Below are positions 34,490 through 64,000 of a DNA stretch of 64,000 nt, piece by piece. This stretch comes from Treponema pedis (lineage in GTDB: Bacteria > Spirochaetota > Spirochaetia > Treponematales > Treponemataceae), in assembly GCF_017161325.1 (NCBI RefSeq), contig NZ_CP045670.1, forward strand, positions 1,107,367 to 1,171,366, read 5' to 3'. A model generated the notes under the pieces. The model had not been told where the DNA came from, ran no database searches, and worked only from the letters and a program-made list of their open reading frames with translations. The first letter of the stretch is position 1, and each line of letters opens with the position of its first letter. A program made the position numbers and the translations under genes.

Positions 34490-35596
34490 ATGGCTATAAA
34501 CTGCGGAATTGTCGGGTTACCCAATGTAGGTAAATCGACCATATTTTCGGCATTAACAAACGCTCCTGCGGAAGCCGCCAATTATCCGTTTTGCACAATT
34601 AACCCCAATATAGGAATTGTAAATTTGCCCGATAAAAGGCTGAAACTCTTGGCGGAACATTTTAACCCCAAGCGTGTTATACCGGCAGCCGTAGAATTTG
34701 TCGATATTGCGGGCCTTGTAAAGGGTGCCTCCAAAGGCGAAGGATTGGGCAATCAATTTTTATCGCACATACGGGAGGTGGGAGTTATAGCCCACGTTGT
34801 CCGCTGTTTTGATAATGACGATATAGTCCACGTTGCCGGAAAAATAGACCCTGTTGCCGATATAGAAACCATTAACATTGAACTTGCCCTTGCCGACTTG
34901 GCGAGTTTGGATAAGCGTACCGAAAGAGCGGAAAAAGCTATGCGCATGAGTAAAGAAGCTCAAAAAGAAGCGGCGGTCGTTATAAAGGCAATCGAAAAAA
35001 TACGGCCTCTTTTACAGGACGGAAAGGGCGCCCGCTTAGCCGATTTAACCGATGAAGAAAAAGATGCAATATACGACACACATTTAATTACAATGAAGCC
35101 TCAAATGTATGTCTGCAATGTTGATGAAAACGGAATGACCGGCGATAATGAATACGTACGGGCGGTAAAAAAAATTGCGGAAGCCGAAGGTGCGGACGTT
35201 GTAATAATTTGCGGTAAATTCGAAGCGGAACTTTCCGATTTGGAAAGCGAAGAAGAGCGCCTTACATTTTTAGCCGAAGCGGGCTTGGAAGAATCGGGCC
35301 TTTCGCAGCTTGCAAGGGCCGCCTATAATTTAATCGGGCTTAGAACCTTTTTTACCGCAGGAGAAGATGAATGCCGGGCTTGGACAATACATGCAGGAGA
35401 TACCGCCCCTAAGGCTGCCGGAGTAATTCATACCGATTTTGAACGCGGATTTATAAAAGCGGAAGTTTACGGGTTTGACGACTTTGTAAAATACGGCTCG
35501 GAACAAAAAATAAAAGAAGCGGGCCGCTACCGCCAAGAAGGCAAGGCCTACACAGTACGGGACGGAGATATTATATTTTTTAAATTTAACGTATAA
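34490..35596 (+). CDS. ychF: redox-regulated ribosome-binding ATPase YchF
   Basis: [24 protein letters not shown]1 motif; 368 aa with a C-terminal TGS domain. Confidence 0.9.
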
Positions 35597-35653
35597 GCCG
35601 GATTAAAATACTTAAAGATACCGCAATTATTTTTAATTTCGGTATCTTAAGCC

Positions 35654-35682
35654 TTGACAAAATCTGCCTTGCTTTTTATAAT
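35654..35682 (+). promoter_or_regulatory. perfect consensus sigma70 promoter TTGACA(35654-35659)-17-TATAAT(35677-35682)
   Basis: Exact match to both hexamers with the optimal 17-nt spacer. Confidence 0.5.
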
Positions 35683-35689
35683 GTTTACT

Positions 35690-35897
35690 ATGGTACAAAA
35701 AGATATTTATTTAGAAAAAAATTTAAATACTTACTCAAAAACCCCTAGACAAAAAGTGGGAAAATATCGTATAGTCCCCCCCCCCCCTCTATATCAAAAC
35801 AACACAGTCTATAAATTAACTGAAAACATAGATATTTTTCTTTTTAATAATAAACGCATAAGACGCTTTTTTTACTTTGTCTTATGCGTTTTTTTAT
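35690..35897 (+). ncRNA. candidate ~200-nt small RNA or 5' leader: consensus promoter, AT-rich body with a C12 homopolymer (35776-35787), strong intrinsic terminator
   Basis: Predicted TSS about 35689. Terminator: 12-bp stem aacgcataagac (35853-35864)/gtcttatgcgtt (35879-35890) followed by TTTTTTT. The only ORF through it (track 35654-36064) lacks an SD and reads through the terminator. Confidence 0.35.
35853..35897 (+). terminator. rho-independent terminator (12-bp stem + U7)
   Basis: See above; perfect 12-bp inverted repeat with a 14-nt loop, then ttttttt. Confidence 0.55.
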
Positions 35898-36060
35898 ATA
35901 TTTACCTCTTTAAAAATAAATCGACATTTTTATTTTTTAATTTTTTAAAGCGGTTTAACCCCTTGAGTTTTTACGGGGCAATCGGTGCAGCGTCTTTCGA
36001 ATATATCGGAGCTTACAAATATAGGAAAAAGCCGGCGGGCATAAACGCAAGGAGAAAAAA

Positions 36061-36702
36061 ATGAAACAAAGTAAAAGAAAATCTTTTGTTGGAGCGGTAA
36101 TTTTTACTGCATTGGTATTGGTTGCCGGACTTTTGGCAGGCTGCCCGAATGGTGCGCCTAAAAATACTAACACAAGTAATACAGGTAACACAGGCAATGC
36201 GGGTAGCACAGGCAACACAAGCAATGAAAATCAGAATAGTATTTTTAAACTTTACTATGGTACCATAGCCGGGTATACGTGCAAAAAAGAAGAACTTCCT
36301 TCCGTTATGGTAATACCGCATAAAGTAAGGGGTTGGGCTATTACAGGAATAGGCCAGAGAGTTTTTGAAAACTGTACGGGCATAACAAGCTTAGACCTAT
36401 CCGCCTGTACAGCCCTTTTTCAAATAGGCCATACAGCTTTTTCAGGCTGTACGGGCTTAACAAATGTGGACTTATCTGCCTGCACACTTCTTACCGCAAT
36501 GAGTTATGACGTTTTTTGCGGTTGTACAAATGCAGAAATAAAACTGCCTGAAAGCATAACCCTTATACTCGGTCATCCTTTTGGAAGCAAAGAAGATGAT
36601 TTTTGCAAAAAAGTTCTTATAAAATCGGGTCCGAATTTTGAAAGAATAAAGGAGCTTTTAGTAGAGTCAGGCTATCCTGAAGAAAGAATCGGACAGTATT
36701 GA
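36061..36702 (+). CDS. lipoprotein with BspA-type leucine-rich repeats and an N/T/G-rich low-complexity linker
   Basis: Signal peptide + lipobox LLAGC; linker NTNTSNTGNTGNAGSTGNTSNENQN; LRR-like segments ITSLDLSACTALFQIGHTAFSGCTGLTNVDLSAC; AAGGAG SD. Confidence 0.65.
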   Translation: MKQSKRKSFVGAVIFTALVLVAGLLAGCPNGAPKNTNTSNTGNTGNAGSTGNTSNENQNSIFKLYYGTIAGYTCKKEELPSVMVIPHKVRGWAITGIGQRVFENCTGITSLDLSACTALFQIGHTAFSGCTGLTNVDLSACTLLTAMSYDVFCGCTNAEIKLPESITLILGHPFGSKEDDFCKKVLIKSGPNFERIKELLVESGYPEERIGQY

Positions 36703-36923
36703 TTAACCCCTGCTGCCGTTTTAAAGACAAGTTTTTTAAAAGCGGCAGGTGTATAATCCTATCTTTATTAATCCTATGCTTTTTTAAGCTCTCAAAAAAG
36801 CATAGGGTGGAAGTAACTGAACTCATCTATGTTTATTTTTCCTTATTTTTAACTTTTACAGATGCGAATCCGCTCGGAAGCGCCGCTTTATTATTCCTCC
36901 TTTTTTTGCTATACTTATTTATT

Positions 36924-63380: not shown

Positions 63381-64000
63381 TCCCTATAAATTCATCAAGC
63401 GCAGATTTTATCAAAAATCGAGCATTGATGAATTTCCGCCGTTTTGCAAGAGCAGCTGAAAAACGGCATACAATCCCGACGTTTGCCGAAAGGCGAACTC
63501 GCAGTTAAAATTAAGCGACGCTATCTTAGGAGCTTAATTTTAACCTCCCTATAAAATAAACAAGCGCAGAAAATATCAATTTTCGAGCATTGTTTATTTT
63601 CCGCCGTTTTGCAACGGAGTGAAAAACGGCATATAATACACGATGTTTGCCGAAAGGCAAACTCGCAGTTAAAATTAAGCGACGCTATCTTAGGAGCTTA
63701 ATTTTAACCTCCCTATAAAATAAACAAGCGCAGATTTTATCAAAAATCGAGCATTGATGAATTTCCATCGTTTTGCAAGCACAGCTGAAAAACGGCATAT
63801 AATACACGACGTTTGCCGAAAGGCGAACTCGCAGTTAAAATTAAGCGACGCTATCTTAGGAGCTTAATTTTAACCTCCCTATAAATTCATCAAGCGCAGA
63901 TTTTATCAAAAATCGAGCATTGATGAATTTCCGCCGTTTTACAACGGAGTGAGAAACGGCATATAATATACGATGTTTGCCGAAAGACAAACTCGGCAGT
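63381..64000 (+). repeat. tandem array of at least 4 copies (unit 164-166 bp, ~85-95% identity, copy starts 63381/63546/63710/63876) of a structured repeat; array continues beyond the window. Each unit carries a promoter-like TTGCAA-17/19-TATAAT, a GAAA-tetraloop hairpin, a 12-bp hairpin and a 10-bp stem with compensatory substitutions.
   Basis: Direct comparison of copies. Stem aattcatcaa/ttgatgaatt (copies 1, 4) is replaced by aaataaacaa/ttgtttattt (copy 2). Inner stem gatttt/aaaatc becomes gaaaat/attttc. Hairpin gtttgcc-GAAA-ggcaaac. Stem ttaaaattaagc/gcttaattttaa encloses a taggag loop. Confidence 0.85.

Follow-up and report, generated by a model that had tools for sequence, protein, structure and literature searches.

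Judged from its sequence, the interval between ychF and an LRR lipoprotein gene in Treponema pedis appears, with somewhat better than even probability, to be the front half of a phase-variable, translation-coupled attenuator of that gene, in which the gain or loss of one C probably switches the downstream surface-lipoprotein gene on or off. The promoter, the poly-C tract and the hairpin of this arrangement all lie between the two genes, in a window of 64,000 nucleotides (the whole stretch of DNA that was analysed). An earlier note on this DNA had taken the transcript either for an independent sRNA or for a terminator-containing leader acting as an attenuator. The attenuator survives in altered form: in every downstream-intact copy of the unit a codirectional gene follows directly, but since the C tract sets the frame of an ORF that is kept open in all lineages, the unit is likely to switch by phase variation instead of sensing a metabolite or a condition.

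The cassette and its promoter

In the window, ychF (34490–35596) is followed by the LRR lipoprotein gene and then by murD, and the lipoprotein and the leader ORF product are both 100% identical to T. pedis proteins. The intergenic region between ychF and the lipoprotein gene measures 464 nt and has 31% GC. Within it, the 206 nt from 35690 to 35895 have 28% GC, in agreement with the earlier description of a promoter-to-terminator span of about 200 nt that is AT-rich and interrupted by a C12 run. The same description held the promoter to be an exact consensus and such a match to be rare, which was confirmed: TTGACA-17-TATAAT is matched at 12 of 12 positions, occurs only here in the 64 kb, and was found in 0 of 100 dinucleotide shuffles. 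The features of the locus are collected in Table 1.

Table 1. Sequence features of the leader and of the cassette that contains it, in window coordinates
Feature	Position	Strand	Remarks
Left TTAA	35647–35650	.	Insertion junction; empty site of other T. pedis strains reads ...CGGTATCTTAA/CCCCTGC...
Strain-variable insertion in the ychF/murD interval, 1,056 bp	35651–36706	+	Contains promoter, leader and LRR lipoprotein gene
Sigma-70 promoter TTGACA-17-TATAAT	35654–35682	+	Exact consensus, 12/12; -35 at 35654–35659, -10 at 35677–35682
ATG, predicted TSS and start codon of the putatively leaderless leader ORF	35690–35692	+	7 nt past the -10
Leader ORF, 124 codons	35690–36064	+	Spans poly-C and terminator; ends in a TGA that shares bases with the lipoprotein start codon (ATGA)
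Second promoter-like match TAGACA-18-TATAGT	35746–35775	+	Adjoins the C tract; 10/12; absent from other copies
Poly-C tract, C12	35776–35787	+	Encodes PPPP; sets the frame of the leader ORF
Two TAA stops in alternative frames	35812–35814, 35817–35819	+	In the conserved block TATAAAYTAA
Intrinsic-terminator-like hairpin and T7	35852–35895	+	13-bp stem, 14-nt loop; inside the leader ORF
Shine-Dalgarno (SD) sequence AAGGAG of the lipoprotein gene	36049–36054	+	154 nt beyond the T run
LRR_5 (BspA-type) lipoprotein gene, 213 aa	36061–36702	+	Lipobox LLAGC; proposed regulated gene
Right TTAA, insertion end	36703–36706		From comparison with empty-site contigs

The extent of the insertion was defined by comparison with ten contigs from further T. 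pedis isolates whose encoded YchF is identical. The cassette is present with the same sequence as in the window in six of them (L002, L005–L008 and L010) and missing from the other four (L001, L003, L004 and L009), which read ...CGGTATCTTAA/CCCCTGCTGCC... across the junction and go directly on into murD. Its edges lie 3 nt 5' of the -35 hexamer and 4 nt 3' of the lipoprotein stop codon, and the lipoprotein gene is its only conventional gene. The promoter is therefore the cassette's own first element and not an orphan, as the earlier note had called it. As the cassette is near-identical among the T. pedis strains that carry it, and strain-variable, the window by itself is low in evolutionary information. 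Hairpin and TTAA junctions were also considered as parts of an integron attC/cassette, a possibility rejected on inspection because GTTRRRY/RYYYAAC cores are absent.

The ATG downstream of the -10 lies 6 nt from it in 11 copies of the leader family described below, 7 nt in the window and in L002, and 10 nt in L026. An ATG placed 6–7 nt past the -10 and lacking an SD sequence suggests a leaderless mRNA, a class known from spirochetes such as Borrelia (PMC5314773); L026, given its 10-nt spacing, would not be strictly leaderless. The second promoter-like match in the window is probably a chance occurrence, and a promoter scan revealed no other good promoter between the terminator and the lipoprotein gene. 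The SD sequence that the earlier note had assigned to this gene is present, at a distance of 154 nt from the T run where 160 nt had been given.

Searches with blastn and nhmmer found no second leader copy in the 64-kb window, and a tRNA/tmRNA search gave no match. Rfam searches of the whole window at the gathering score, and of the leaders of the window, L024 and L027 by E-value, returned only noise, the best E-values for the leader (0.05–0.07) falling on unrelated eukaryotic or viral families; the leader thus corresponds to no known cis-regulatory RNA or riboswitch of Rfam. Three TD-1 RNAs lie at the far end of the window.

The leader family, its open frame, tract and hairpin

Five of the six frames of the window's intergenic region contain 8–14 stops each and the sixth contains none, extending from a TAA at 35648–35650, in the left junction, to the TGA at 36062–36064 (shuffle P ~0.003). 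The first ATG after the promoter, at 35690, falls in this one stop-free frame. The resulting ORF has been annotated from the TTG at 35654 as hypothetical protein TPE_1055. No SD-preceded ORF was found in the interval, and the only ORF, whether counted from 35654 or from 35690, runs through the terminator to 36064, both as noted before. When the tract length was varied in silico, C9, C12 and C15 gave an ORF of 123–125 aa through the terminator, and all other lengths from C8 to C16 stopped at 35814 or 35819, with the two TAA codons placed 37 and 32 nt 5' of the hairpin. A Pfam search with the leader peptide gave no match. The peptide contains a hydrophobic segment, FVLCVFLYIY.

Relatives of the leader were collected by leader-ORF protein search, hairpin-pattern scan, profile search and exact look-ups, yielding 14 DNA copies. 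The protein search returned a T. pedis paralogue (the TPE_0294 locus) and a metagenomic relative. The hairpin-pattern scan of a genome collection found T. putidum, one MAG and three chance matches and missed T. pedis itself, and the corresponding scan of metagenomes found one contig. The copies are those of the window, L002, T. pedis locus 2 (L023 and L024), T. putidum ATCC 700334 (L018), a Treponema MAG (L019) and the metagenome or read-assembly contigs L016, L022 and L025–L030. The leader, C tract included, thus occurs in T. pedis, in uncultured Treponema and in T. putidum, which is the outcome of a check on related strains that the earlier note had proposed.

The promoter is retained in 13 of the 14 copies in one common layout; the fourteenth, L016, is cut upstream, so that promoter and ATG are missing from the contig, and it was left out of the phase assignment below. 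Every copy reaching that far has TTGACA, a 17-nt spacer and a -10 reading TATAAT, TGnTAAGGT or TGnTATAGT. The downstream genes vary, encoding LRR_5 lipoproteins of 213, 301 or 341 aa, a protein of 51–60 aa or a small membrane protein, and every downstream-intact copy stands directly upstream of a codirectional gene with an SD sequence. Between ATG and tract the frame is open in every copy for 28, 35 or 46 codons (shuffle P 0.03–0.10 each), and the sequence of this segment in the window is unrelated to that of the other copies. On the 3' side of the tract exactly one frame is open per copy, for 276–332 nt (shuffle P 0.0007–0.01 per copy), ending anywhere from 11 nt inside the downstream gene to 48 nt before its start. 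The leader-ORF stop overlaps the downstream start in the window, and a gap of 1–3 nt separates the two in L026, L029 and L030. The other two frames stop 11–36 nt after the tract, in each case over 30 nt short of the hairpin; across the family, the stops of the predicted OFF state lie 32–58 nt upstream of the hairpin, which itself starts 64–80 nt past the tract and 162–200 nt from the ATG. In the window, and likewise in all in-frame copies, the leader ORF begins near the 5' end and spans the hairpin. By tract phase, the window, L002, L025, L026, L027, L029 and L030 are in frame, whereas the tracts of L018, L019, L022, L023 and L024 put the frame out of phase; the tract of L028 keeps the frame, but its leader is truncated just past this point. 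The in-frame share, about 40% of the DNA-level copies, equals the expectation for random tract lengths and therefore speaks neither for nor against the switch model. The earlier note had mentioned the ORF without giving it weight, although it proves to be the central element; it had missed that the ORF begins at the predicted TSS, that all lineages keep it open and that its frame is set by the C tract.

The tract shares several properties with simple sequence repeat (SSR) contingency loci. It is far longer than composition predicts: C12 is the sole G or C homopolymer of at least 8 nt in the 64-kb window (38% GC), in which 0.19 matches of C9 or longer are expected by chance. Its length is polymorphic, the 14 DNA copies having tracts of 8, 8, 9, 9, 10, 10, 10, 11, 12, 12, 14, 14, 15 and 16 C, and lengths of C8, C11, C12 and C14 between near-identical flanks are implied by ORF calls. 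At T. pedis locus 2, the tract is C14 in an isolate assembly (L023) and C15 in the T A4 genome (L024), and this is the sole difference between them, 174 nt upstream and 400 nt downstream being identical; length thus differs between isolates within identical flanks. At the window's own locus, both assemblies that span the tract have C12 (n = 2). A change in length shifts the reading frame, as the in silico variants above demonstrate. Of the six contigs with the cassette, five terminate at the tract or just 5' of it, and matching contigs from the same or other assemblies (L012–L015) begin just 3' of it. Contigs break at the tract in at least six draft assemblies; these breaks are only suggestive and could be a sequencing artefact. 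L005 terminates in a poly-G artefact.

In pairwise comparisons of the ORF, codon positions 1, 2 and 3 have even shares of the differences, and nonsynonymous differences outnumber synonymous ones about 3 to 1, indicating that the leader peptide is not under conservation at the protein level. When the T. putidum copy was randomly mutated to the observed divergence (15–31%), separately for each of four lineages, the frame remained open in 1–5% of trials. The leader ORF thus appears to be under selection, stops being excluded despite 25–30% divergence (P 0.01–0.05 per lineage); combined P values are overstated, because many copies are ~90% identical and only about five lineages are independent. 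Indels between the tract and the block TTTTTACGG measure 9, 12 and 3 nt. Farther 3', single-base indels switch the frame in some lineages, and each is still open to about the same point, so that the last ~25 leader codons are read in different frames by different lineages. Both sequence conservation and the open frame run 170–220 nt past the terminator, up to the downstream start. Since stops are excluded without a codon-position bias, translation itself and not the peptide appears to be what is selected, a pattern that fits an ORF selected for being translated and not for its product.

The hairpin, made of AAACGCATAAGAC (35852–35864) paired with GTCTTATGCGTTT (35879–35891) and followed by the T run (35889–35895), places an intrinsic-terminator-like element between the promoter and the structural gene. 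It stands where the earlier note had located it, together with its T7, but the perfect stem has 13 bp and not 12 (14 bp counting G.U), with a folding energy of -16.8 kcal/mol (z = -6.1). A simple terminator scan did not report it because its loop exceeds 8 nt. The stem is kept across lineages, with 93% of cells paired compared with at most 69% when the 3' arm was slid. Changes in the stem are one-sided, one pair varying between U-A, U.G and C-G and a second between G-C and G.U, and they keep pairing in the plus-strand RNA only. No double compensatory change was found in the hairpin alignment, and the evidence for the structure therefore consists of conservation and wobble-compatible drift. Energies range from -15.7 to -21.5 kcal/mol across copies, followed by U7 in most; L026, L029 and L030 have weaker hairpins, and L029 and L030 also have the shortest tract, C8. 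A stem ACCGCC/GGCGGT just 3' of the terminator is kept in the non-window copies and is partial in the window. A fold that would sequester the SD downstream of the terminator found no support: the copy in the window folds with z = +0.2, and the consensus fold leaves the SD unpaired. Structure prediction also gave no conserved long-range pairing.

Proposed switch and competing explanations

In the attenuator model, the strong constitutive promoter would produce an mRNA starting at or beside the AUG and hence leaderless, and a ribosome loading at this 5' end would translate the leader ORF, whose peptide sequence would be irrelevant, and pass over the hypermutable poly-C tract. When the tract is in frame, as at C12, the ribosome would trail RNA polymerase through the hairpin, covering the 5' arm during synthesis of the U tract, so that folding would be blocked, termination suppressed and the remaining leader protected. 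Translation would end at or near the lipoprotein start, as the overlap in the window suggests, and the lipoprotein would be expressed; the window would thus represent the ON state. After slippage by one C in either direction, the ribosome would meet a TAA 24–32 nt past the tract and more than 30 nt 5' of the hairpin, the hairpin would form, and transcription would end at the T run, leaving a 206-nt RNA in the OFF state. The tract would be read as a proline run in any case, and stalling there may add sensitivity to EF-P or prolyl-tRNA. The architecture and its conservation, the exclusion of stops without selection on the peptide, and the polymorphism of the tract are observed features of the family; from them we infer the TSS at the ATG, translation of the ORF, 5'-end loading with a trailing ribosome and the effect on termination.

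Work in E. coli has shown that an intrinsic terminator is repressed when placed in translated sequence past the first 100 bp, and that it reaches its maximal efficiency of ~0.9 when more than 30 bp separate it from the preceding stop codon (PMC4824070). It has also been reported that a polyproline stall 5' of an intrinsic terminator leads to EF-P-dependent read-through, and that most RNAs are not tightly coupled in E. coli reporters (PMC5021804). As poly-C encodes polyproline in every frame, this stall result suggests an optional physiological (EF-P) input to the switch. The lipoprotein gene has a good SD sequence of its own, and because no SD-masking fold is supported, the openness of the ORF past the terminator would rest on assumed Rho polarity or coupling.

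Several other explanations would account for part of these observations. The tract might act at the level of RNA or DNA without being translated, as a target of a G-rich sRNA or protein, in the manner of RepG at tlpB of H. pylori, as a Rho site, or as a partner of a G-rich stretch near the SD, its length tuning expression gradually. Poly-C is a classical Rho ligand, the tract does lie in the transcribed leader, and G-rich stretches (GGGTTGGGCGGGG, or GGCGGGC in the window) occur 20–60 nt 5' of the downstream start. Nevertheless, we consider this explanation unlikely, since it leaves unexplained the ATG at the predicted TSS, the fact that the frame is open both 5' and 3' of the tract, the placing of out-of-frame stops before the hairpin and the exclusion of stops, and since no conserved long-range pairing emerged from the predictions. 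A somewhat smaller probability attaches to the possibility that the product of the ORF is a genuine small (membrane) protein that evolves rapidly, made phase-variable by the poly-C tract and co-expressed with the lipoprotein, with a hairpin that is leaky or incidental. The conserved open frame, the hydrophobic FVLCVFLYIY segment and the annotators' choice of hypothetical proteins for TPE_1055 and TPE_0294 are in its favour, whereas substitutions are mostly nonsynonymous and free of third-position bias, the N-terminal part in the window is unrelated to other copies, the last ~25 codons change frame between lineages, and Pfam offers no match. Moreover, the most conserved 'residues' of such a protein coincide with the hairpin and T run, which are conserved as nucleotides.

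The independent sRNA that the earlier note had offered as one of two options, here of ~206 nt and running from promoter to terminator with the ORF features as by-products, we regard as distinctly improbable. A strong promoter and a strong terminator do bound a discrete RNA, which the OFF state would accumulate anyway, but conservation and the selected open frame continue for 170–220 nt beyond the terminator, all downstream-intact copies directly precede a codirectional SD-bearing gene, the promoter-to-tract segment is conserved between lineages only in being open, and Rfam has no match for it. Transcriptional phase variation of the kind attributed to T. pallidum tpr genes, in which the tract would alter promoter geometry, for instance that of TAGACA-18-TATAGT, is very improbable. 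The promoter-like match, at 10/12, does end exactly at the window tract, and poly-G tracts are cited as modulating tpr promoters in T. pallidum; against this, the match is missing from all other copies, no acceptable -35/-10 pair flanks the tract, and the tract starts 86 nt (window) to ~140 nt (other copies) downstream of the start site of the conserved promoter, outside the promoter elements and not in a spacer. There is scarcely any likelihood that the leader is chance or relic sequence in a recent cassette, with the lipoprotein expressed by read-through from the consensus promoter: the cassette is indeed strain-variable and near-identical among T. pedis strains, but none of the elements has been lost from the diverged copies of other loci and other species. 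The phase-variable, translation-coupled attenuator accordingly remains our preferred, if tentative, reading of the sequence.

Significance and relation to known systems

T. pedis, T. putidum and related treponemes cause digital dermatitis, porcine skin ulcers and periodontitis. To our knowledge, phase variation in Treponema has been documented only for the promoter poly-G tracts of T. pallidum. The literature searched contains no account of poly-C switching for T. pedis, T. denticola or T. putidum, the T. pedis genome papers mentioning homopolymers in general terms only, and it yielded no precedent for a terminator gated by a repeat tract within a leader ORF or uORF. There is about an even chance, in our estimate, that the family represents a portable and previously undescribed contingency-switch module, in which the frame of a leaderless, poly-C-bearing upstream ORF gates a terminator for any downstream surface-protein gene, possibly with an EF-P or proline input. 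If so, a repeat in a dispensable leader ORF gating a terminator would constitute a third route of repeat switching, besides repeats in promoters and in genes, and a natural example of leaderless translation enforcing transcription-translation coupling. The module is compact, at ~400 nt, and therefore directly testable. It also calls for caution in annotation, as the 'hypothetical proteins' TPE_1055 and TPE_0294 may be regulatory ORFs.

Elements of the proposed switch are found separately in several characterized systems. In Clostridioides difficile, the surface protein CwpV is phase-variable through a terminator in the 5' leader of cwpV, controlled by site-specific DNA inversion. As in the Treponema leader, an intrinsic terminator between promoter and surface-protein gene gates phase-variable expression, but the control by DNA inversion involves neither a repeat tract nor translation. 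The tlpB leader of Helicobacter pylori contains a G-repeat of variable length that is targeted by the sRNA RepG for post-transcriptional modulation. It shares with the Treponema leader a homopolymer of variable length in the 5' leader, whereas it needs the trans-acting RepG and does not depend on reading frame. Parallels for the tract itself are Neisseria opa, Haemophilus lic1 and the poly-G genes of Campylobacter, which likewise combine a slippable homopolymer, a frame shift, a surface-exposed target and length differences between isolates. Their repeats are part of the regulated gene itself, whereas the Treponema tract belongs to a distinct ORF farther upstream, the product of which is apparently irrelevant, and the effect on the downstream gene would be mediated by a terminator. 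Within the genus, the tpr and TP0126 poly-G tracts of T. pallidum are also G/C homopolymers upstream of genes for surface or outer-membrane proteins, and their length variation has been linked to expression (Giacani 2007, as cited); they act on promoter activity, whereas the poly-C tract lies 86–140 nt inside the transcript and within an ORF.

With respect to the proline run, Salmonella mgtL and mgtP and a synthetic polyPro-terminator reporter similarly have consecutive proline codons 5' of a termination signal, and stalling in such leaders uncouples translation from transcription and raises termination (Elgamal et al., PMC5021804). Those systems respond to proline or EF-P physiology by way of alternative RNA structures or Rho, while the proline run here is a by-product of the mutable C tract, and EF-P sensitivity of the Treponema leader is speculative. 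Functionally, the leader resembles that of E. coli pyrBI, where the leader ORF pyrL begins near the 5' end and runs through an intrinsic terminator and a closely following ribosome blocks the hairpin (as cited in PMC4824070 and PMC5021804). Coupling in pyrBI is set by UTP-sensitive pausing of the polymerase, and pyrL has an SD sequence; in the Treponema leader, which is apparently leaderless, precedes surface-protein genes and has no homology to pyrBI, the proposed coupling would be set by the frame of the poly-C tract. The proposed combination of a pyrBI-like leader ORF with a frame-shifting contingency tract would be new, and the leader is a sequence relative of neither.

Borders of the lipoprotein cassette

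The 1,056-bp lipoprotein cassette, a strain-variable insertion between ychF and murD, carries TTAA at both ends, and the empty site has one TTAA. This arrangement suggests either a 4-bp target duplication or microhomology; no terminal inverted repeats were seen at the cassette, and no transposase was seen with it. The insertion point lies immediately 3' of a 9-bp hairpin that directly follows ychF and has no T run, and a second long hairpin stands after the cassette. The latter is probably the terminator of ychF in T. pedis strains without the cassette, and that of the lipoprotein gene in the window. Elsewhere in the window, three TD-1 RNA motifs (Rfam RF03155; 97, 78 and 74 bits) are arranged in tandem, the last of them reaching the window edge.

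Positions of the features discussed
Feature	Source	Position
TTAA copies at cassette ends	window	35647-35650; 36703-36706
9-bp hairpin, AAGATACCG-N16-CGGTATCTT	window	35615-35648
Second hairpin, CCTGCTGCCG...CGGCAGG	window	about 36708-36750
Three TD-1 motifs	window, minus strand	63384-63999
Terminal G run	L005	4290-4340
C16 and CA repeat	L026	2255-2282
Loop insertion, GTGCGGAGGGTTTAATACCCCGACGC...	L027	about 690-800
Truncated leader	L028	2607-2660
C8 leaders	L029; L030	1069-1200; 640-770

Exchange of the gene behind the locus 2 leader

At locus 2 (TPE_0294 in T. pedis), the order of an Imm26-family immunity protein gene, a GNAT acetyltransferase gene and the leader is common across species (L018 from T. 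putidum, L023 and L024 from T. pedis, and the family contigs L025 and L028-L030). The gene 3' of the leader is exchanged between copies and encodes either a 301-aa LRR protein or a 51-60-aa protein, with the breakpoint at ...GAAAGATA, close to the end of the leader ORF. L028 comes from another Treponema and contains the Imm26-acetyltransferase locus; its leader breaks off directly past the conserved TATAAACTAAAT block, where unrelated DNA with a methyltransferase on the opposite strand takes over. This copy is a rearranged remnant that has retained C14.

Altered tracts and terminators

A GenBank draft contig of T. pedis with the cassette (L005) ends in about 54 Gs straight after TATAGT, at the expected position of the C tract. 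There is hardly any doubt that this G run arose as an artefact of two-colour sequencing, and it illustrates how difficult the tract is to sequence. In the most divergent copy of the leader family (L026), C16 is directly followed by (CA)5-6, which places two slippage-prone repeats side by side in the leader ORF. A single copy (L027) carries an insertion of about 115 nt within the terminator hairpin loop, which has a higher GC content, is apparently structured and leaves the leader ORF open. Rfam gave no significant match, and the inserted segment is perhaps a small mobile element. The shortest tract, C8, is in frame in both L029 and L030, where the hairpin is weakened by an A-C mismatch and additional G.U pairs and the U tract is broken by one C, features that may reflect decay of the proposed phase-variable switch toward a constitutive ON state.
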